Shown one piece after another: positions 17,666 through 30,676 of a stretch of 31,189 nucleotides of DNA (the stretch's first letter is position 1; every line of letters begins with the position of its first letter). Source of the DNA: an uncultured Flavobacteriaceae bacterium. Its GTDB lineage: Bacteria > Bacteroidota > Bacteroidia > B-17B0 > Aurantibacillaceae. The notes beneath the pieces are model-generated. The model saw only the letters and a program-made list of their open reading frames with translations. It did no database searches and had not been told where the DNA came from. The position numbers were made by a program, and so were the translations under genes. The stretch lies in the NCBI GenBank assembly GCA_964416235.1, contig CAYQDP010000001.1, forward strand, positions 1 through 31,189, written 5' to 3'.

Positions 17666-18883
17666 ATGGCAAATACAAATAAGAAAGCGATACTGTTTAT
17701 TTTCATTACACTTTTGGTTGATTGTACAGGAATCGGAATAATCATTCCGGTGGTTCCTTCCTTAATACAACAACTAACAGGCTCCAATGTTAGTGAGGCG
17801 GCGACTTATGGCGGGTGGTTAACCTTTGCTTATGCCATTATGCAATTTATTTTCTCTCCTGTTTTGGGGGGGCTTAGCGACCGTTATGGAAGAAGACCGG
17901 TGCTTTTAATTTCCTTATTAGGATTAGGAATTGATTACCTCTTTTTATTTTTTGCTCCGGATTTGTGGTGGTTATTTGTTGGACGAATAATCGCAGGTAT
18001 TTGCGGGGCAAGCTTCACAACAGCTTCAGCCTATATTGCAGACATAAGCACAGAAGAAAATCGTGCACAAAATTTCGGAATGATTGGAGCGGCTTTTGGA
18101 TTAGGATTTATAGTAGGACCATTATTAGGAAGTTTGTTCAGTAGTTTCGGTGTTCGCGTTCCGTTTTTAGCAGCAGCAGCATTGTCACTTTTAAATTGGG
18201 CTTATGGATATTTTATTTTACCTGAATCCTTATCTAAAGAAAACAGACGTCCCTTCGATTGGAAACGTGCCAACCCTTTAGGTTCATTACTGCATTTAAA
18301 AAAGTATCCGGCCATATTAGGTTTAATCCTGGCAATGGTATTAATATATATAGCCGGTCATGCCGCTCAATCAACCTGGACATTTTTTACCATTGAACGC
18401 TTTCACTGGAACGAGCAATGGATAGGATATTCTATTGCGTTTGTAGGTGTAACCGTTGCGCTTGTTCAAGGAGGATTGATTAGATACACTACAAAAATTT
18501 TGGGCACTAACAAGTCTGTTATTGTTGGATTGCTCTTTTACGTTATTGGGTTTACTTTATTTGCCTTTGCTTCACAAGGCTGGATGATGTTTGTGTTTAT
18601 GATTCCGTATGCTTTAGGTGGTATTGCGGGTCCGGCACTTCAAGGGTTAATGACCGGGCACGTTCCTTCTAATGAACAAGGCGAACTGCAAGGTGCTATT
18701 ACAAGCTTAGTAAGTTTAACATCCATTGTTGGTCCTTTATTAATGACGAGTCTGTTTTCGTTTTTTACCGCACAAGGCGCGCCATTTTATTTTCCCGGTG
18801 CTCCTTTTATGATGGGTGCCGTATTGTCTTTGTTAAGTGTTTTTATAACGGTTGGCGCCTTACGTAAATTTGCTGTAAAATAA
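17666..18883 (+). CDS. MFS transporter, TCR/Tet (DHA1) family
   Basis: Motif [14 protein letters not shown], motif [20 protein letters not shown], and about 12 hydrophobic segments. Substrate not determinable. Confidence 0.92.
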
Positions 18884-20923: not shown

Positions 20924-23131
20924 ATGAAGTCACGCAATATTTTTACCCTTTTTCTGATCTCTTTTAGTACTGTATCTGTTTTCTCGCAAGAAGACAGTGT
21001 AAAAACACTTAATCTTCCTGAAATCGAAATCAACCAAAAGCCTCTTAAAAATGAAATTGAACGAATGCCTGAAGTATTAGGCACATCAATTTATGCAGGA
21101 AAAAAGAACGAGGTTATTAAACTGGGAAACATTGACGCTGATTTATCTGTAAACAATTCACGTCAGGTTTTTGGAAAGGTGCCCGGTGTTACGGTGTGGG
21201 AAAATGATGGGTCAGGAATTCAAGTGGGTGTTTCAACAAGAGGATTAAGCCCTAATCGCTCTTGGGAATTTAACATCCGTCAAAACGGAGCCGACATAAG
21301 CGGTGAAACGTTTGGATATCCTGAAGCATATTATAGCCCGCCTTTAGAAGGAGTAGAACGCATTGAAGTAATTCGCGGCGCTGCATCTTTACAATATGGC
21401 CCGCAATTTGGAGGCTTATTAAACTATGTAATGAAAAAGGGTAACGCGTACAAGCCTTTGGTTTTTGAAACTCAACAAACATTTGGAACATACGGATTAT
21501 TTAATTCATACAACGCGTTAGGCGGAACGTATAAAAAAGTTTCTTATTATGCTTTTTTTCATCATCGTGGAGCTGATAGTTGGAGGGATAACAACCGTTA
21601 TACAATCAATGCCGGTTATGCGGCCATTAATTATTCCGTTACTTCTAAACTTAATATCGGAATTCAATATACGCGCAGTAGTTATTTAAGTCAGCAACCT
21701 GGCGGACTAACCGACTCGTTATTTAATGTTGATGCACAGCAATCTTTCCGTAAACGTAATTGGACTTCAGCGCCATGGAATGTGGCGACAGTTTATGCTG
21801 ACTATAATATTTCAGAGAATACAAAATTGAACATTAAATTATTTGGGGTGTTAGCCGAGAGAACAAATGTTGGATTTGTAAGAGCCATTAATATAGCTGA
21901 TACATTTAATACAAGCATAAAATCTTTTAATCCTCGCCAGGTAGACAGAGATTATTACAGCAATTATGGAGGAGAAATTCGTTTTTTACAAATGTATAAC
22001 TTGATGAAACAGAAGAGCGCATTAGCAGCCGGCGTACGTGTTTATCAAGGAAATATTTTACGACGTCAGCTGGGCGTAGGAACCACTGGAGATGATTACG
22101 ACGTAACCATTGCTTCACAATCTAATGGAAAAGATTTTTCTAAAGAATATAATTATAACACTGACAACATAGCTTTCTTTTTAGAAAACATGTTTAAAAT
22201 CGGAAAGCGTTTGAGCATCACTCCCGGTGTTCGTTACGAAATTATTAATTCATCTGCCAAAGGATATTTAAACACAAGTGCTACCGGAACTTTTACGCCT
22301 GTTAGTGAAAACAGAAATGTTGTTTTATTTGGAGCAGGAGCAGAATTTCAGACAACAAGTACAACAAATTTGTACGCGAATTTTAGTCAGTCATATCGCC
22401 CGGTTACATATTCTGAATTAACCCCTTCTGGAACAACAGATGTAGTTGATCCAAACTTAAAGGACGCAAGCGGATATAACATTGACGGTGGCTTCAGAGG
22501 GAAAATTAAGGATTACTTGAGTTTTGACATTGGAGGGTTTTATTTACTCTACGATAATAGAATAGGCACAATTACTCAAAATGGTTTACCGTTTAAGACA
22601 AATATTGGTACATCTGTTAGTCAGGGAGCGGAGGGCTTCGTTGAAATTGATCCAATTCGTGCGTTTACTGCAAACTCTCCTGTTGGATACATCACGTTGT
22701 ATGCTTCATACGCGTATGTAGACGCGAAGTATACCCGTTGGGATAACCCTGCTATTGCAAACGATCCTGCAAAATCAATTGTTGGTAAACGTGTTGAGTA
22801 CGCGCCACAGAATATTGGACGTTATGGAGCAACATATATTTATAAGAATATCTCTGCTACATTTCAGTTAAGTCAAGTTAGTGAGGTTTATTCTGATGCA
22901 GCGAACACTGAAAAATATAATCACGCAGCAACTGTAGGTGTTGTGCCGGCTTATATGGTAATGGATGCATCGTTAACAGTATTGTTTGCAAAAAAATACA
23001 ACTTAAAAGCCGGGGTGAATAACCTAAGCGATGAAAAATATTTTACCCGTCGTGCAGGAGGATACCCTGGCCCGGGCATTATGCCGGCTAATGGAAGAAC
23101 TATCTTCGTGAGTATTGGCGCAAAGATTTAA
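20924..23131 (+). CDS. TonB-dependent receptor, FecA-like
   Basis: Plug motifs RGLSPNRS and VERIEVIRGAASLQYG; C-terminal GVNNLSDEKYFTRR...GRTIFVSIGAKI beta-strand. Confidence 0.9.
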   Translation: MKSRNIFTLFLISFSTVSVFSQEDSVKTLNLPEIEINQKPLKNEIERMPEVLGTSIYAGKKNEVIKLGNIDADLSVNNSRQVFGKVPGVTVWENDGSGIQVGVSTRGLSPNRSWEFNIRQNGADISGETFGYPEAYYSPPLEGVERIEVIRGAASLQYGPQFGGLLNYVMKKGNAYKPLVFETQQTFGTYGLFNSYNALGGTYKKVSYYAFFHHRGADSWRDNNRYTINAGYAAINYSVTSKLNIGIQYTRSSYLSQQPGGLTDSLFNVDAQQSFRKRNWTSAPWNVATVYADYNISENTKLNIKLFGVLAERTNVGFVRAINIADTFNTSIKSFNPRQVDRDYYSNYGGEIRFLQMYNLMKQKSALAAGVRVYQGNILRRQLGVGTTGDDYDVTIASQSNGKDFSKEYNYNTDNIAFFLENMFKIGKRLSITPGVRYEIINSSAKGYLNTSATGTFTPVSENRNVVLFGAGAEFQTTSTTNLYANFSQSYRPVTYSELTPSGTTDVVDPNLKDASGYNIDGGFRGKIKDYLSFDIGGFYLLYDNRIGTITQNGLPFKTNIGTSVSQGAEGFVEIDPIRAFTANSPVGYITLYASYAYVDAKYTRWDNPAIANDPAKSIVGKRVEYAPQNIGRYGATYIYKNISATFQLSQVSEVYSDAANTEKYNHAATVGVVPAYMVMDASLTVLFAKKYNLKAGVNNLSDEKYFTRRAGGYPGPGIMPANGRTIFVSIGAKI

Positions 23132-23814
23132 TTTTTGCAAGCACAACCGGGTTTGTTACAACTCACCATTATTTTTTCGGCTACTTTTGAGGAAAGCACG
23201 GCATTCTCTCCATTTTTATATTTTACTTTTACAGAACCATCAAATAAAAATATTTTTTCTACACTCAACTTTTCATTAAGCCCTATTTTTAAATCGGTTA
23301 AATAATTCAAGAACTCAGCGCTGTCTTCATTTACGCCAAGCACTGTGCATTTACAACCTTCTACACTATTTAACAACGGGCGCCGTATACTTACCGGTAG
23401 CTTACCGCTTTTATCTGGTATTGGATCTCCGTGCGGATCAAACTTCGGCTCGCCGCTCAGCGTGTAAATTCTGTCAATCAATTTTTCGGAATTTACATTT
23501 TGTAATTGCTCCGCCATTTCGTGAACTTCATTCCAACCAAACTTACACACCTTGTGCAAAAAGGTTTCCCAAATCCTGTGTTTGCGGATAACGCTTAATG
23601 CCTCTTTCTCTCCATTACGCGTAAGTTGCGCGCCTTCAATCTTAGTGTATGTAATAAGTTTTTCTTTTACCAAAACCTGAAGCCTTTCGAGAACGGTTGG
23701 CGGTTTTAAATCGAGATAATAAGCCAAATCACTCAGACTAACTTTATTGTTTTTTTCGGTGTGACTAATGGCATAAATGGCTCGTAAATATTTTTGGTCG
23801 GATGTCTTTAACAT
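23128..23814 (-). CDS. DtxR/MntR-family metalloregulator with FeoA/SH3-like domain and degenerate primary metal site
   Basis: YLRAIY, HTH, RKHRIWETFL, EVHEMAEQL, DPHGDPIP, and a C-terminal FeoA-like domain. Confidence 0.92.
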   Translation of the reverse strand: MLKTSDQKYLRAIYAISHTEKNNKVSLSDLAYYLDLKPPTVLERLQVLVKEKLITYTKIEGAQLTRNGEKEALSVIRKHRIWETFLHKVCKFGWNEVHEMAEQLQNVNSEKLIDRIYTLSGEPKFDPHGDPIPDKSGKLPVSIRRPLLNSVEGCKCTVLGVNEDSAEFLNYLTDLKIGLNEKLSVEKIFLFDGSVKVKYKNGENAVLSSKVAEKIMVSCNKPGCACKN

Positions 23815-23818
23815 GGCA

Positions 23819-23826
23819 CAAAGATA
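23819..23826 (-). promoter_or_regulatory. -7 promoter element (TATCTTTG) of the DtxR-family gene
   Basis: TAnnTTTG match 4 nt before the ATG. Confidence 0.7.
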
Positions 23827-23847: not shown

Positions 23848-23866
23848 AATAAAATTAGGTTCTTTG

Positions 23867-23874
23867 TATTTTTG
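23867..23874 (+). promoter_or_regulatory. -7 promoter element (TATTTTTG) of the second TonB receptor
   Basis: TAnnTTTG match 4 nt before the GTG at 23879. Confidence 0.65.
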
Positions 23875-23878
23875 CAAT

Positions 23879-25906
23879 GTGAGTTTAAGAGCACTAATAT
23901 TCCTTTTATTACCCTTTTTGTCTTTTGGTCAGAAGCTAAAAGACACACTGGAAAGCAATTCTGTAGAAGAGGTTGTTATTACCGGCACGCTAAAGGAAAT
24001 TAGTAAAGACGATAGCCCGGTAAATATCGACATTATTACGCCTAAACTTTTCCAGAAAACAGCCACACCTAATTTGTTTGAGGCTACTTCATTAGTCAAC
24101 GGAGTAAAACCACAAATTAATTGTAATGTGTGTAATACCGGCGATATTCATATAAACGGAATGGAGGGTCCGTATACACTTATTTTAATTGACGGGATGC
24201 CTATTGTTAGCGGACTGTCCTCAGTATATGGTTTAATGGGAATTCCGGCAAGTATGATTGAGCGATTGGAAATTGCAAAAGGTCCGGCCGGTGCGCTTTA
24301 CGGTTCGGAAGCGATGGGAGGAACAATAAATTTAATTACCAAAAACGCATCGCTTGCACCAAAGTTTTATGCCGATTATTTCGGAACTTCTTATCTCGAA
24401 AACAATTTAGACATTAGCACCAAATTAAAATTGGGAAATAAAGCGAGCTGGCTAATCGGCGCCAATGCCTATTGGTACGATACACCTTCCGACATTAACA
24501 ACGATGGCTTTACCGATGTGACGTTGCAAAAACGTATCTCCGGTTTTAATAAAATTAATTTTAACAGGAAAGAAAATCGCGAAGCAAGCATTGCCGCTCG
24601 GTATGTTTATGAAGACCGTTGGGGCGGACAAATGAATTGGGATAAAAACTTCAGAGGAGGTGACAGTATTTACGGAGAAAGTATTTTCACCAATCGCGCT
24701 GAGGTAATTGCAAAATATCAATGGCCGGTTAACGATAGAATTATTACGCAACTATCCTATAATTTACATGATCAGGATTCTTATTACGGTACCACACCAT
24801 TTATGGCGTTTCAGTCAACGGCGTTTGCGCAAACCTACTGGAATAAGTCAGTAGGAAGAAAGAAGCGCCATGATATGTTAATCGGACTCGCTTATAAAAA
24901 TTTATGGTATGATGACAGTACACCAATAACAGAAGTAAACGAACAATCGCACACAGCAGGTTTATTTCTTCAAGACGAAATCACGTTAGATTCCCTTAGT
25001 AAACACAAACTATTGTTAGGATTCAGGGGCGACTATAACAACGTGTATAATTTTATTCCCTCTCCGCGCATCGCGTATAAGTGGGCACCGTCATATAAAT
25101 TTATTTTTCGTTTAAATGCAGGTACCGGATTCAGAATTGTAAATGTGTTTACCGAAGATCACGCCGCATTAACAGGCGCGCGCAAAGTGGAGTTCGTAGA
25201 TAAAATCAAACCGGAACAATCCTATAACACAACGCTTAATTTTATTTATAAAATGAAGGTGAGCGCAGCTTCTATGATTGTTTGGGACGCTTCTGTTTTT
25301 TATTATTACTTTACGAATAAAATTGTAGCTAACTACGATTTAAATCCCGATAAAGTAATTTACAACAATCTCACCGGTTACGCGTATTCACAAGGCGCAT
25401 CATTAAATGCATCGTTGGCTAGTCCGGGAAATTTTAAGTTTAATATTGGTGCAACGTATTCAGATGTTCAAAACATCAACAAAGATTCAAGCGGCAAACA
25501 AGTGGCATCGTGGCAACTGCAATCACCGCGATGGAGTGGAAATATTATCATAGGATACAATATTCCAAAACACAATGTAAAGTTGGATATCACCGGAAAT
25601 TGGTATGGTCCGCAGCGTTTACCGATTTTACCAAAAGATTACCGACCACAATACTCGCCGTGGTTTTGTTTACTCAACGCGCAAGTATCAAAAACAGTAA
25701 AGGATAAATTTGAAGTTTATGTCGGAGCCAAGAATATTTTAAATTTTATTCCTCAAAATCCAATCATGCGGCCTCAAGATCCTTTTGATAAATCAGCGAA
25801 TGATGCAAGCACAAATCCAAATGGCTATACGTTCGATCCTTCATACAATTACGCGCCTATACAAGGTTTACGTTTTTACGTTGGTTTTCGTTTAACACTT
25901 AATTAG
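23879..25906 (+). CDS. TonB-dependent receptor with CxxC motif in the plug domain
   Basis: EEVVITGT TonB-box region, INCNVCNTGDIHINGMEG, IERLEIAKGPAGALYGSEAMGGTINLITK, and terminal RFYVGFRLTLN. A GTG start at 23879 gives a clean signal peptide (MSLRALIFLLLPFLSFGQ); the track's TTG at 23864 lies upstream of the -7 box. Confidence 0.88.
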   Translation: MSLRALIFLLLPFLSFGQKLKDTLESNSVEEVVITGTLKEISKDDSPVNIDIITPKLFQKTATPNLFEATSLVNGVKPQINCNVCNTGDIHINGMEGPYTLILIDGMPIVSGLSSVYGLMGIPASMIERLEIAKGPAGALYGSEAMGGTINLITKNASLAPKFYADYFGTSYLENNLDISTKLKLGNKASWLIGANAYWYDTPSDINNDGFTDVTLQKRISGFNKINFNRKENREASIAARYVYEDRWGGQMNWDKNFRGGDSIYGESIFTNRAEVIAKYQWPVNDRIITQLSYNLHDQDSYYGTTPFMAFQSTAFAQTYWNKSVGRKKRHDMLIGLAYKNLWYDDSTPITEVNEQSHTAGLFLQDEITLDSLSKHKLLLGFRGDYNNVYNFIPSPRIAYKWAPSYKFIFRLNAGTGFRIVNVFTEDHAALTGARKVEFVDKIKPEQSYNTTLNFIYKMKVSAASMIVWDASVFYYYFTNKIVANYDLNPDKVIYNNLTGYAYSQGASLNASLASPGNFKFNIGATYSDVQNINKDSSGKQVASWQLQSPRWSGNIIIGYNIPKHNVKLDITGNWYGPQRLPILPKDYRPQYSPWFCLLNAQVSKTVKDKFEVYVGAKNILNFIPQNPIMRPQDPFDKSANDASTNPNGYTFDPSYNYAPIQGLRFYVGFRLTLN

Positions 25907-27130: not shown

Positions 27131-30100
27131 TTACCATAATTGGTAATCAAGAACAGTGTTTTCCATGCGGTATGTTGGGGTTTGTTTTCCCCCTGAGAGA
27201 TTGTTTACTTCTTCCGCGACATACTTTTGCAGCTCACTTAATACTACTTTCTTATCATGATTTAAATCAGCCTTAAAATTGTTTAAGCCTTCCAACACAC
27301 AATGTGTAAATAATCCGTTCTTCCATTTCTCTCCTTCAAAAGCAGCTTCTGTTCCTCCGGCTGATGAGATAATTGTAGCGCCTGAATTTTGTCTTAAGTC
27401 GGAGAAAATGGCTTTCGACATTTCCATGGCTGTAGTTTGTGTAAAAGCTTTTCCTGCAATACGCACATCGCGTCCGTCTTTATTTTTCTTTTCTTCTCCA
27501 CCTTCCTCATTAAAGATATCTTCATCAACCTCTCCGCTAAAACAAGCATCAATAAACATTAATTTTCTGATTGGTTTCATTTTGGTAAATAATTTTTCGA
27601 ATTCTTTAAACGCAACCGAATTAATTTTCGGATCAGAAAAATCAGTATAATAAGTAGGAAAGTAATAGCTTAAATCTTCGTCTAAATAACCATGTCCCGC
27701 AAAAAACACCATCACCACATCATTAATGTTGGCTTTATCAAAAAACGTTTTTAATTGCTTCACAGAATCGGTTGTAAAAGATTGATTAAATAGTTTTTTG
27801 ATTTCTATTTTACCAAACGACTTTGAATTACTCATCATGTTGGCCATATCGCTGGCATCTTTTACGGCGTAAGACAAATCAAAATCAGTATTCTTAAATT
27901 TTTCGGAGGCTACCACAACCATGTAAAGATTAGGCTTCACTTCTTTGGTATTATTGTAGAGTCTTACTGTACGCGGACTCTCCAATCCGTTTTCATCGCG
28001 GGCAATAAATTCAAACCGATTGATACCGGAGGCCGTTTCCAATGAAATTGTTTTTTCATAGTGAGATGCCGAGGACTCATTGATGCTTTCAATAAACACC
28101 TGCGTGCCGTTGTTCAGCACAGCAATTTGTTTCAACTTACCTAGCCCTTTATTTAAACTAATCGAAAAATTAATTTTACCCGCACTCTCTTCGTTAAGAT
28201 TTATGTATTGAAAATCGGGATGTGCCGTGAAATTAATTTTACTTCCGGGAGCAATCCCTAAAACTTTCATACGCTTGGTGTATGCTGTTTCATAAGCCTT
28301 AATTAAAGCACTATCACCGCAGCCGAAGGAACGAAGTACTTGATGCGGCTGATTTAAGTAAGCATCGAACTGTTCAAAGCTGAACATTTCACTTTTATAT
28401 TTAAAGCGCATGTTTTTAATAAAATCTTTAGAGCCCATGTAGTGTAATTCCGGAGTAATTATAAAGTAATTATCATTTAATGCGTTCGCAATTTGTCCGA
28501 TTACTTTTTTGTTTTTAAGATCGATGAATGTTGCCAGGGAGGTTGACATTCCGGTTACAATCACTTTATCTTGTTCTTCAATAAAAAAACATTTTGGCAT
28601 TAAAATATTGCTTTCACTTAAATCATACACCTCTTCGGCATTGCTGTTATAAATTTTAAATTGCTTGCCAAGAGCATCACTCAAGGCAAAGAACTTTCCG
28701 TTTTCGCTCGTAGCATGAAAAGGAATAATGTCAGGGGTTTTCGCAAGAGTTTTTGTAAATAACTCTTTTCCGCTTTCAGTTTCGTATTCGGAGTAAACAG
28801 TTTCTTTATACTCACTGTTGTAATTGGCAATGTCGTATTTGATATACCAAATGCCAATTTTTTTACCGCCTTCTTTTAAAAGAAAATCATATGGATAATA
28901 CGACTCTGCGTAATCACGAACGATTTTTTTGCTAACCATATCTATTTTTACAATAGCATTGGTGGGCACTTCGCTTTCATAACCATTAAAGTTTTTCTTT
29001 TTATTGATTTGGGCTGAGGTATAAATAGATTTATTATCCGGACTAATTATAACAGGCGCCGTCATCGACCAGGTCTGGCTTTCAAATTCAGTAGCTTTTG
29101 TTTTACGATTAATGATTTTGTAATTACCTGAGCCGGGAACAAACACCAGGTCTTTAGTAAATGAAATGATTTTATAAATGTTGTTAGCGGCCAGAGAAAA
29201 CATACCCTCGTATTTTTCTTCCGCCATTGTTTTTAAATTAATAATATGCAAAGAGGTAAAATCAGCATAATAGAACTCTCCATTTTTAAATCCGCTTGTA
29301 GAAGCGGTGATATTTTTTTTGATGGTCCGCGTATATTTTTTCTTCGCAATATTGTAGATGTTGAGATTAAAATTTGGATAGGCCTTTCCTGAATTCACAA
29401 CAATTTCAGAATCGTTGAGAAAAAACAAACCATATACAAGAGAAGTGTCGTTATTGCTGATGTCTTTTATCTCGGCGTATTTACTAAAGTTATTTAAGTC
29501 CCAAAGATTTGCTGTGTTAAAGCCTTTGGTGTATAACCAATGTTTGTTCGGGCTTACATCCGCAACGTAAATGGGATTATCCATTGCGGCGCGTTCAGAA
29601 ATAATTTGCATGTTATCAGGTCGGTACACGCGCAATGCTTTGTAAGATGTAAATCCATTCGTAATAAGACGACGACCTTCAGAGGAAAACTTCAGATTAG
29701 TAAAAATGCCTTCAGTTGTTTTTACTAATGTTTTTTTCGGCATGTCAACAAACTTGATGCCTTTCATGGTAAGGCAAACTAACTGAGAGGTGCCTGGCCA
29801 TAGGTCCATATCATAAATATAATCGTCAGCCAGTGTCTTTTCATCAACATTAGTGCTCAGTGCCCTGGGCTTCCGTAAATATTGTTGTTGAGTTGTGTTG
29901 TAGTAGGCCGTGTATTTTTTTGGCATCATAACTTCATAAACAACTTTATTGTTCGTTAAATTAAGCGCAAAAAAATTATCTGATGTCGCACACATCAAAA
30001 GGGAATCTCTGATTTTATATTTACTGACGCTTCCTATATCTTCAATAACAGTTGTTGTTTGGGTTAAATTACTTAATGATTGTTTTATAATGGACGTTAC

Positions 30101-30676
30101 CGTTCCGGATGATTTTGCTAAGATGGCTTCCTCTCCTTTGATGTATGGAGCAGCATGATACATATAATCGGCTACAGGAAACGCATGAGAGCTTACCGCC
30201 TTTTTATTTTCAAAATCGTAGATAAGCGTAAAGGTGCCAACACTTACATAAATTAGATTTCCTTTCCCTGTAAAGAAACAACCGCTAATGTGAAGAGCAC
30301 CATAGTACTCGCTGTTTGGAAGTCCTTTTATTAATTCGGCACTATTGGTTTTGAAAACAGTTTGAAGCTTTTGGTCTTTAAATGAAAAAATGACAAGCTC
30401 GTTGTTGGCGCAAACCATCAGCAAATCACCTGTACGATTAATGGATAAGTTTTTTGCAAGATAGGGCAGATCAATTTCATCAATAACCTCGGATGTTTCT
30501 GTATTAAATATTGTAAGAGCATTGGAGCATACCGCAAAGTTCTTTTCACCGGGCAGAAACTGAACAAAATCAAAATAGCTATAACCAAAATCCTTCGGAA
30601 TTATAATTTTTATATCCTTTAATTGAGAAAAGGCAAATAAAGGAACTAGAAATAGTAAAAGGAATAATTTCCGCAT
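27131..30676 (-). CDS. Exported beta-propeller (WD40-like) + caspase-like (C14) protease
   Basis: Signal peptide MRKLFLLLFLVPLFAFSQ and repeated short beta-strand blades. Caspase domain with FFAGHG (His995), FIDACFSG (Cys1045), NGLFT and QTP. No T9SS CTD at the C-terminus. Confidence 0.85.
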   Translation of the reverse strand: MRKLFLLLFLVPLFAFSQLKDIKIIIPKDFGYSYFDFVQFLPGEKNFAVCSNALTIFNTETSEVIDEIDLPYLAKNLSINRTGDLLMVCANNELVIFSFKDQKLQTVFKTNSAELIKGLPNSEYYGALHISGCFFTGKGNLIYVSVGTFTLIYDFENKKAVSSHAFPVADYMYHAAPYIKGEEAILAKSSGTVTSIIKQSLSNLTQTTTVIEDIGSVSKYKIRDSLLMCATSDNFFALNLTNNKVVYEVMMPKKYTAYYNTTQQQYLRKPRALSTNVDEKTLADDYIYDMDLWPGTSQLVCLTMKGIKFVDMPKKTLVKTTEGIFTNLKFSSEGRRLITNGFTSYKALRVYRPDNMQIISERAAMDNPIYVADVSPNKHWLYTKGFNTANLWDLNNFSKYAEIKDISNNDTSLVYGLFFLNDSEIVVNSGKAYPNFNLNIYNIAKKKYTRTIKKNITASTSGFKNGEFYYADFTSLHIINLKTMAEEKYEGMFSLAANNIYKIISFTKDLVFVPGSGNYKIINRKTKATEFESQTWSMTAPVIISPDNKSIYTSAQINKKKNFNGYESEVPTNAIVKIDMVSKKIVRDYAESYYPYDFLLKEGGKKIGIWYIKYDIANYNSEYKETVYSEYETESGKELFTKTLAKTPDIIPFHATSENGKFFALSDALGKQFKIYNSNAEEVYDLSESNILMPKCFFIEEQDKVIVTGMSTSLATFIDLKNKKVIGQIANALNDNYFIITPELHYMGSKDFIKNMRFKYKSEMFSFEQFDAYLNQPHQVLRSFGCGDSALIKAYETAYTKRMKVLGIAPGSKINFTAHPDFQYINLNEESAGKINFSISLNKGLGKLKQIAVLNNGTQVFIESINESSASHYEKTISLETASGINRFEFIARDENGLESPRTVRLYNNTKEVKPNLYMVVVASEKFKNTDFDLSYAVKDASDMANMMSNSKSFGKIEIKKLFNQSFTTDSVKQLKTFFDKANINDVVMVFFAGHGYLDEDLSYYFPTYYTDFSDPKINSVAFKEFEKLFTKMKPIRKLMFIDACFSGEVDEDIFNEEGGEEKKNKDGRDVRIAGKAFTQTTAMEMSKAIFSDLRQNSGATIISSAGGTEAAFEGEKWKNGLFTHCVLEGLNNFKADLNHDKKVVLSELQKYVAEEVNNLSGGKQTPTYRMENTVLDYQLW

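Follow-up and report, generated by a model that had tools for sequence, protein, structure and literature searches.

We analysed a 31,189-nucleotide stretch of contig CAYQDP010000001.1 (GenBank assembly GCA_964416235.1, from an uncultured Flavobacteriaceae bacterium), hereafter called the window. In it, a gene for a regulator of the DtxR/MntR family stands back to back with a gene for a TonB-dependent receptor, and a perfect palindromic operator, O1, lies between the two (Table 1). Each of the two genes is preceded by a putative -7 promoter box. A second TonB-dependent receptor gene converges on the regulator gene, and a gene for a secreted protein converges on that of the divergent receptor. 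The regulator is the subject of this analysis; its primary metal site is replaced at all positions except one and its second, ancillary (interdomain) metal site is kept.

Table 1 Features of the regulator locus and its neighbours, in positions of the window
Feature	Position	Strand	Basis or remark
Second TonB-dependent receptor gene, siderophore-receptor-like	20924..23131	+	Convergent with the regulator gene, 4-base-pair (bp) overlap of the stops
DtxR/MntR-family regulator gene, 228 amino acids	23128..23814	-	Open reading frame (ORF); winged-helix DNA-binding, dimerisation/metal and FeoA (SH3-like) domains
C219-x4-C224-x-C226 tail	23137..23160	-	Directly after the last FeoA strand (215-218); tail at a predicted local distance difference test score (pLDDT) of ~81
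Binuclear ancillary site ligands H79, E83, H98, D126, H128, D130, E163	23326..23580	-	Alignment
C154-K-C156	23347..23355	-	Start of the first FeoA strand (155-161 in the AlphaFold2 model)
E102-Q103-L104-Q105-N106, remnant of the primary site	23497..23511	-	E-x-x-E-H in relatives
Cys90 codon	23545..23547	-	Specific to the K8/Q105 clade; Leu in the sister clade
Lys8 codon, AAA	23791..23793	-	Position of the N-terminal primary-site ligand (Asp11 in DR2539, Met10 in DtxR, Asp/Asn in MntR types)
Putative -7 box of the regulator, TATCTTTG	23819..23826	-	4 nucleotides before the ATG, 5 nucleotides from O1
Operator O1, perfect 16-bp palindrome ATTAGGTATACCTAAT, core TTAG-N6-CTAA	23832..23847	.	Sequence, conservation
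Extra ATTAGG half-site, receptor side of O1	23854..23859	.	Sequence, related loci
Putative -7 box of the divergent receptor, TATTTTTG	23867..23874	+	4 nucleotides before GTG 23879; conserved in related loci
Divergent TonB-dependent receptor gene, 675 amino acids	23879..25906	+	Plug domain; ORF opens at TTG 23864, likely start GTG 23879
Plug motif NCNVCNTGDIH (C-x2-C-x5-H) of the divergent receptor	24119..24151	+	C87, C90 and H96 in 680-amino-acid numbering
Gene for a secreted protein, 377 amino acids	25903..27036	-	No Pfam or NCBIfam match; converges on the divergent receptor gene, 4-bp overlap of the stops

The regulator belongs to the DtxR/MntR family by architecture, fold, ancillary site and operator, and departs from it at the primary site. 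Its Pfam matches, all above the cut-off, are PF01325 Fe_dep_repress (34.9 bits), PF02742 Fe_dep_repr_C (93.6 bits) and PF04023 FeoA (32.3 bits). The top NCBIfam match is the MntR equivalog model NF047407, although the score of 130.4 bits lies below the cut-off of 350. An AlphaFold2 model made from 44 clade sequences has a mean pLDDT of 88. Its top match in the PDB is the Mn-bound MntR of Mycobacterium tuberculosis (5zr6; template-modelling scores 0.84/0.91, root-mean-square deviation 2.0 Å, compared with 3.6 Å to chain A of the apo form 5zr4), and the top 50 PDB matches in a Foldseek search are all members of the DtxR/MntR family. Residue numbering coincides with that of DR2539 and DtxR from residue 79 onward, in agreement with the first-pass annotation, which had been made from the letters of the window and their translations. 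In the searchable literature we found nothing specific on DtxR-family regulators of Bacteroidota or on family members described as lacking ligands.

Codon counts place Q105 at CAA (23500-23502) and N106 at AAT (23497-23499), and only Glu102 is kept among the primary-site residues, the others being replaced by K8, Q105 and N106. The five best solved homologues (M. tuberculosis MntR 5zr4, DR2539 8pvt, SloR, ScaR and MtsR) all have AE.LEH where the window regulator has AEQLQN, and all have Asp before the Tyr-Leu pair where it has Lys. The same counts bear out what the first-pass annotation had said of these residues, namely the CAA AAT codons, the Lys before Tyr-Leu, Glu at position 102 and the intact H79, E83 and H98. 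In Mn-type members of the family, Asp or Asn stands at the position of Met10 of DtxR and Glu at that of Cys102 (PMC11672702). The regulator would be of Mn-type ancestry, since its sister clade, described next, carries N8 and E102.

The altered state is the property of a clade. We compared the regulator with the best 120 clusters in the database, which all come from uncultured Bacteroidia/Bacteroidota. All 100 full-length members of the near clade carry K/R8, C90 and Q105, and the 19 members of a sister clade, at 55-58% identity, carry N8, L90, E105 and H106, so that position 90 co-varies perfectly with the primary-site state in both. Within the first group, which we call the K8/Q105 clade, Q105 is invariant and position 106 is occupied by nine different residues (N, H, T, S, Q, K, G, M and A), a variation that reads as the signature of a former ligand freed from constraint. 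The first-pass annotation had raised Lys8, Q105/N106 and the Cys-rich tail as marks that might co-occur in a subfamily. Lys8 and Q105 do define one (100/100); N106 varies, and the tail is found in the sister clade too. As far as these alignments go, the canonical primary site has been dismantled as a clade character, and the loss of the site that had been noted in the single sequence extends to the whole clade. No description of this clade, or of the five-Cys motif treated below, was found in the searchable literature.

A wider sample of the family consisted of the 150 best representatives from a library clustered at 50% identity. E105/H106 is present in 139 of them and Leu90 in 136. Lys8 occurs in four representatives from three independent lineages, all four without His106, and in none of the 139 with the canonical pair. 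In this library the clade collapses to two clusters (P0097 and P0121) and everything else is at most 44% identical to the regulator, which shows how narrow this lineage from uncultured Bacteroidia is. An independent contig of a metagenome-assembled genome of a Bacteroidia bacterium (L001) encodes a regulator with 99% amino acid identity and the same K8/Q105 state. Between the two orthologues, nonsynonymous divergence (dN) is 0.009 and synonymous divergence (dS) 0.66, a dN/dS of ~0.01; for seven further orthologues dN is 0.07-0.18 and dS is saturated. By this measure the gene is under strong purifying selection.

The ancillary site has a different history. H79, E83, H98, D126, H128 and D130 are found in 121 of 121 sequences across both clades, and residue 163 is Glu in 120 and Asp in one. 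In DR2539, the same six residues together with D163 of the C-terminal domain bind two Mn ions, Glu102 forms a hydrogen bond with His98 and Glu105 one with His79 (preprint 10.1101/2024.02.12.579695). Judged by alignment, then, the full binuclear ancillary site of the DR2539 type is intact and invariant in the clade.

In DtxR, IdeR and the MntR of Bacillus subtilis, activation requires the primary site, and the first-pass annotation had started from this requirement. The premise that the loss of E105/H106 removes metal activation is too strong for the family as a whole. The primary Mn sensor of Streptococcus pyogenes MtsR is the interdomain site, formed by H76, E80, C123, H125 and D160, and alanine substitutions in it abolish DNA binding and regulation (PMC6698748). 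These five residues correspond to H79, E83, D126, H128 and E163 of the window regulator (PMC6698748). Our analysis suggests that the regulator most likely keeps metal sensing despite the loss of its primary site.

The FeoA domain carries five cysteines, two at the start of its first strand and three in a C-terminal tail that reads C219-N-K-P-G-C224-A-C226-K-N. The first-pass annotation had reported this ending correctly, had overlooked C154-x-C156 and had described the tail as gained with the site loss. That last claim fails. C154 is present in 121 of 121 sequences and C156 in 120 of 121, in the K8/Q105 and sister clades alike, and the C-x4-C-x-C tail is invariant both in the K8/Q105 clade and in the canonical N8/E105/H106 sister clade. 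Because it is equally invariant in the canonical sister clade, the five-Cys motif appears to be older than the site loss and thus to be no compensation for it, and we rejected a compensatory role of the tail on this ground. Of the cysteines discussed here, only Cys90 seems to be new with the K8/Q105 state. Cys-rich tails have also arisen independently on other lineages with the canonical Glu-His pair (P0124, P0131 and P0233), and such tails are enriched together with first-strand cysteines (5/8 vs 17/133).

The first and last strands of SH3-like folds are antiparallel partners, and the start of strand 155-161 should therefore neighbour the end of strand 215-218. A single thiolate cluster formed by the FeoA-domain cysteines is plausible on this topology. 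CopY has a CxCx4CxC motif at the C-terminus of a winged-helix repressor of the BlaI/MecI type, and ArsR/CadC proteins have a CxC motif. The regulator has no contiguous C-x-C-x4-C-x-C: its C-x4-C-x-C alone is unbroken, with the C-x-C 63 residues upstream of it, and the fold is of the DtxR type. Any likeness to CopY thus appears to be one of spacing only.

O1 lies 17 bases from the regulator ATG at 23814, and the first-pass annotation had been right about both the palindrome and its distance. It is the sole exact copy in the window, where matches with up to three mismatches are expected 0.24 times by chance. The operator is kept at the same place in 14 of 14 loci, comprising the window, 11 other loci of the K8/Q105 clade (0-2 mismatches) and both sister-clade loci, in which it reads AATTAGGTnnnCCTAATT. 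Together with the purifying selection on the gene, this agrees with the retention of the operator that had been noted in the single sequence. The core has the geometry TTAG-N6-CTAA, as does the DR2539 operator ATTTTAGTCGCGCCTAAAAT, which was defined by experiment.

Read in the orientation of the regulator, the intergenic region consists of CCTAAT, 6 bases, ATTAGGTATACCTAAT, 5 bases, TATCTTTG, 4 bases and the ATG. A CCTAA half-site ~6-9 bp upstream of O1 is found in 10 of 12 K8/Q105 loci; it is absent from L159, L160 and both sister-clade loci. The Bacteroidetes -7 promoter consensus is TAnnTTTG. Both octamers, TATCTTTG and TATTTTTG, fit this consensus and recur across most related loci, with TAnnTTT(G/A) at the -7 position of the regulator in at least 11 of them. 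As far as can be judged from the sequence, a palindromic operator between two conserved -7 boxes is the arrangement expected of the DtxR/MntR family.

A metagenome scan for the exact 16-mer (query ATTAGGTAYRCCTAAT) gave 120 listed matches, to which the following counts refer. About 11 of those listed lie directly upstream of unrelated canonical DtxR-family genes (L039, L066, L069, L071, L076, L090, L100, L102, L103, L141 and L143), on contigs of 39-74% G+C and next to proteins 26-38% identical to the window regulator. The remaining matches listed are mostly due to chance. No member of the K8/Q105 clade is among the matches listed, and the scan is uninformative on the regulon. The position of the 16-mer upstream of canonical genes suggests that the box is a family-wide autoregulatory operator and thus that DNA recognition has been kept; canonical family members appear to share it across phyla. 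A search of the window and of the retrieved flanks (±6 kb around the matches) gave no convincing further copy of the operator, and the visible regulon therefore consists of the regulator and the divergent receptor.

Matches to TTAGGN4CCTAA also occur inside DtxR-family genes of Bacteroidota and Firmicutes (L009-L011, L013, L021, L022 and L025). We rejected these as operators, since they are the codons TTA GGA GAA CCT AAA of an L-G-E-P-K stretch; they could mislead operator scans.

The divergent receptor is the constant partner of the regulator. NCBI annotates it in the 675-amino-acid form (P0276). An orthologue lies divergently beside the regulator in the eight loci L001-L008, where the receptors are 68-92% identical, and in the sister clade (51%). 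For L158, L159, L160 and the P0086 contig, the divergent neighbour is called a receptor by Pfam domains or position alone. The motif NCNVCNTGDIH in the plug is invariant in 10 of 10 orthologues and present in ~117 of 120 database relatives. Searches for the substrate through NCBIfam, PDB sequences and database names gave a generic likeness to siderophore, B12 and colicin receptors, mostly in the plug. The receptors of the window, L001 and L002 lack an N-terminal CarboxypepD_reg domain of ~75 amino acids (window 23864-24100), which all other receptor orthologues (L004-L008, L033 and L036) possess, and this points to a lineage-specific deletion.

A functional parallel is known from Stenotrophomonas maltophilia, in which MntR regulates a TonB-dependent receptor whose plug carries a CQNC motif and which is proposed as a route of Mn uptake under Mn/Fe limitation (PMC13217887). 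The two systems share an MntR-family regulator and a receptor with a CxxC in the middle of the plug, the feature that defines the motif of the CQNC module (PMC13217887). They differ in that the window receptor has CNVC (residues 87-90) and not CQNC. The CQNC module has a gene for a periplasmic thioredoxin-fold protein downstream of the receptor; no thioredoxin-fold gene occurs in the listed neighbourhoods, and the gene that follows the receptor is the convergent one for a His/Tyr-rich protein.

Among characterised regulators, close parallels are the Mn sensor DR2539 of Deinococcus radiodurans and the MntR of M. tuberculosis. The solved fragment of DR2539 (8pvt/8pvz/8pw0) matches the regulator with an expectation value (E) of 4.6e-26 and 39-40% identity in the structural alignment. 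The two proteins have the ancillary residues H79, E83, H98, D126, H128 and D130 in common, an acidic residue at 163, Pro38 in the recognition helix and the operator geometry. DR2539, however, has a full primary site (D11, E102, E105 and H106) and a tertiary site, lacks the five FeoA-domain cysteines, and controls an inner-membrane Mn transporter, whereas the predicted target in the window is a TonB-dependent receptor. M. tuberculosis MntR (5zr4 apo, 5zr6 with Mn) is the top PDB match both in sequence (E 2e-28, over the full length including FeoA) and in structure, and it shares the DPHGDPIP linker; unlike the window regulator it has the canonical ligands in QDYL and AEVLEH, and neither a CxC nor a Cys tail.

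Other relatives differ in other ways. The streptococcal MtsR, ScaR and SloR (6o5c, 3hrs and 5cvi) are likewise three-domain proteins, and in the MtsR type contacts of the FeoA domain drive oligomerisation on DNA, a possible use for the extra half-site of the window. They have Cys at the position of D126, retain E-x-x-E-H, regulate ATP-binding cassette importers of Mn and have no Cys tail. The actinobacterial Fe sensors DtxR and IdeR share the family, the numbering, the ancillary H79/E83/H98 and half-sites of the TTAGG type. Their primary site (M10, C102, E105 and H106) is essential and they have Phe128, whereas the window regulator has the Mn-type Glu102 and no E105/H106; the similarity extends only to E 1e-8 to 1e-13.

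We favour the reading that the regulator is a functional one-site repressor of the MntR type, responsive to Mn or Fe through its ancillary site and acting on its own promoter and that of the receptor, and give it a probability of roughly 0.55. When metal is plentiful, the dimer would bind the TTAG-N6-CTAA palindrome between the two back-to-back promoters, presumably repressing its own gene and that of the divergent receptor. Metal would be bound at the binuclear interdomain site, which would hold the FeoA and dimerisation domains clamped together. In place of the primary-site cation, Lys8 most likely pairs with Glu102 in a salt bridge free of metal, and Gln105 and Glu102 most likely survive as second-shell hydrogen-bond partners of His79 and His98. 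The sensed metal would be Mn(II), possibly Fe(II), because the ligands are all oxygen or nitrogen and because of the ancestry of the protein. The extra half-site, with FeoA-mediated oligomerisation as known from MtsR, may let a second dimer bind. A separate thiolate site, probably structural and of the Zn type, is the most likely arrangement of the five Cys, and it would tie the C-terminal tail to the first strand. Of the three options that the first-pass annotation had offered, sensing through the ancillary site alone is thus the best supported, and metal independence is the least likely.

The third option of that annotation was sensing through the Cys-rich tail. In its present form it makes the five Cys, together with Cys90, the sensory site for a thiophilic metal (Cu(I), Zn(II) or Cd), an iron-sulphur (Fe-S) cluster or redox state, with the CxxC-plug receptor importing the matching metal. 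The five Cys are invariant in sequences down to 55% identity, the tail is ordered in the model, C-x-C and C-x4-C-x-C spacings are typical of thiolate metal sites such as those of CopY and ArsR/CadC, Cys90 appears exactly where the primary site is lost, and the partner receptor has its own invariant C-x2-C-x5-H motif. Yet the motif predates the loss and, in the sister clade, is found beside a complete canonical sensor with the same operator and receptor partner, and is therefore not a replacement. Moreover, topology would put it at that end of the first FeoA strand that lies remote from E163 and the interdomain site; like tails occur sporadically on canonical members, as expected of an accessory or structural site; and sensing through a site of this kind is known for no member of the DtxR family (review PMC11672702). 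We consider sensing by the Cys motif possible and on balance unlikely. A composite of these ideas, in which Lys permanently replaces the primary cation, the five Cys (and Cys90) bind an Fe-S cluster or a thiophilic metal as a second input new to the family, and both this and the binuclear site control a CxxC-plug receptor that imports ionic metal directly, is speculative and distinctly unlikely.

DNA binding might also be independent of metal, either constitutive or under non-metal control, with Lys8 locking the DNA-binding domain in the active state. A positive charge at position 8 stands for the cation ligand in every member, Lys8 is confined to family members without His106, and the model is closer to Mn-bound 5zr6 than to the apo structure. 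Against this, AlphaFold2 tends towards holo-like conformers whatever the ligand state. The invariance of seven ancillary ligands across ~120 clusters is hard to explain without metal binding, and constitutive repression would render an uptake receptor gene useless. We regard this explanation as very unlikely. That Q105/N106 is a sequencing or assembly error, or that the gene is in decay and its operator serves a canonical paralogue, is scarcely credible, even though E to Q (GAA to CAA) and H to N (CAT to AAT) are each one-base changes. The same state recurs in independent assemblies and ~100 clusters, the frame is intact in all members at a dN/dS of ~0.01, and the operator always lies directly upstream of the regulator gene. 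A scan for further loci gave one per metagenome-assembled genome in eight clade genomes, which is weak evidence as the GEPKFDPH pattern also catches canonical Bacteroidota relatives. We therefore rejected error and pseudogene status, two of the outcomes that the first-pass annotation had named as fatal to its own reading.

Several points weigh against the one-site repressor that we favour. Activation requires the primary site in DtxR, IdeR and B. subtilis MntR, so its mechanism is an extrapolation from MtsR-type proteins, which are themselves still E-x-x-E-H in sequence. We infer the contact of Lys8 with Glu102 and the clustering of the five Cys from topology; a simple structural Zn site would need one fewer than the five invariant Cys, and we found no explanation for Cys90, which arose together with the site loss. 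All clade members are known from metagenome-assembled genomes. A canonical paralogue elsewhere in the genome may use the same operator. Finally, the annotations of the receptor are generic and name no substrate.

Around the regulator and receptor pair, homologues of the second receptor are found in L001, L002, L004, L005 and L008 at 38-96% identity. No operator-like site was found near its start. In a 61%-identical clade member (L160, 1618-5117) the regulator gene is followed by genes for another TonB-dependent receptor and for a PepSY_TM protein, which typically occur together where ferric siderophores are taken up and reduced; in the window the corresponding place is taken by the siderophore-type receptor. 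The 377-amino-acid secreted protein contains a stretch rich in His and Tyr, HNYYWHYHHHHFYHHHYYYH, has a C-terminus rich in Pro and Gly, is conserved in L001-L003 at 63-81% identity, and may bind metal. Beyond it, a gene at 27131..30676 (-) encodes 1181 amino acids with a C-terminal caspase domain (Peptidase_C14) and a weak beta-propeller signal; it scores 69.7 bits against the EACC1-associated-type model, below the 140-bit cut-off. A transporter of the major facilitator superfamily at 17666..18883 (+) resembles the Tet(A)/Tet(B)/Tet(C) efflux family at 352 bits, below the cut-off of 475, and is not to be named a tetracycline-resistance gene on present evidence. The rest of the window is ordinary Bacteroidota chromosome, with genes for MnmG, seryl-tRNA synthetase, ribosomal protein L21, YbeY and guanylate kinase as well as for cargo of the type IX secretion system (T9SS).

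How much the primary and the ancillary sites each contribute in the DtxR/MntR family is debated, and the answer appears to differ between Fe-type and Mn-type members. The K8/Q105 clade is a natural knock-out of the primary site that has remained stable in evolution; its binuclear site is fully conserved, and both its operator and its target gene can be identified. The clade is therefore a clean system in which to ask whether the interdomain site alone can drive allostery and whether a lysine can mimic a cation. Automatic annotation as a "Mn-dependent regulator" hides the missing primary site in such proteins. The clade also draws attention to an uncharacterised five-Cys motif attached to the FeoA domain, and to TonB-dependent receptors of uncultured Bacteroidia that share an invariant CxxC-H plug motif and, as a family, may import ionic metal.

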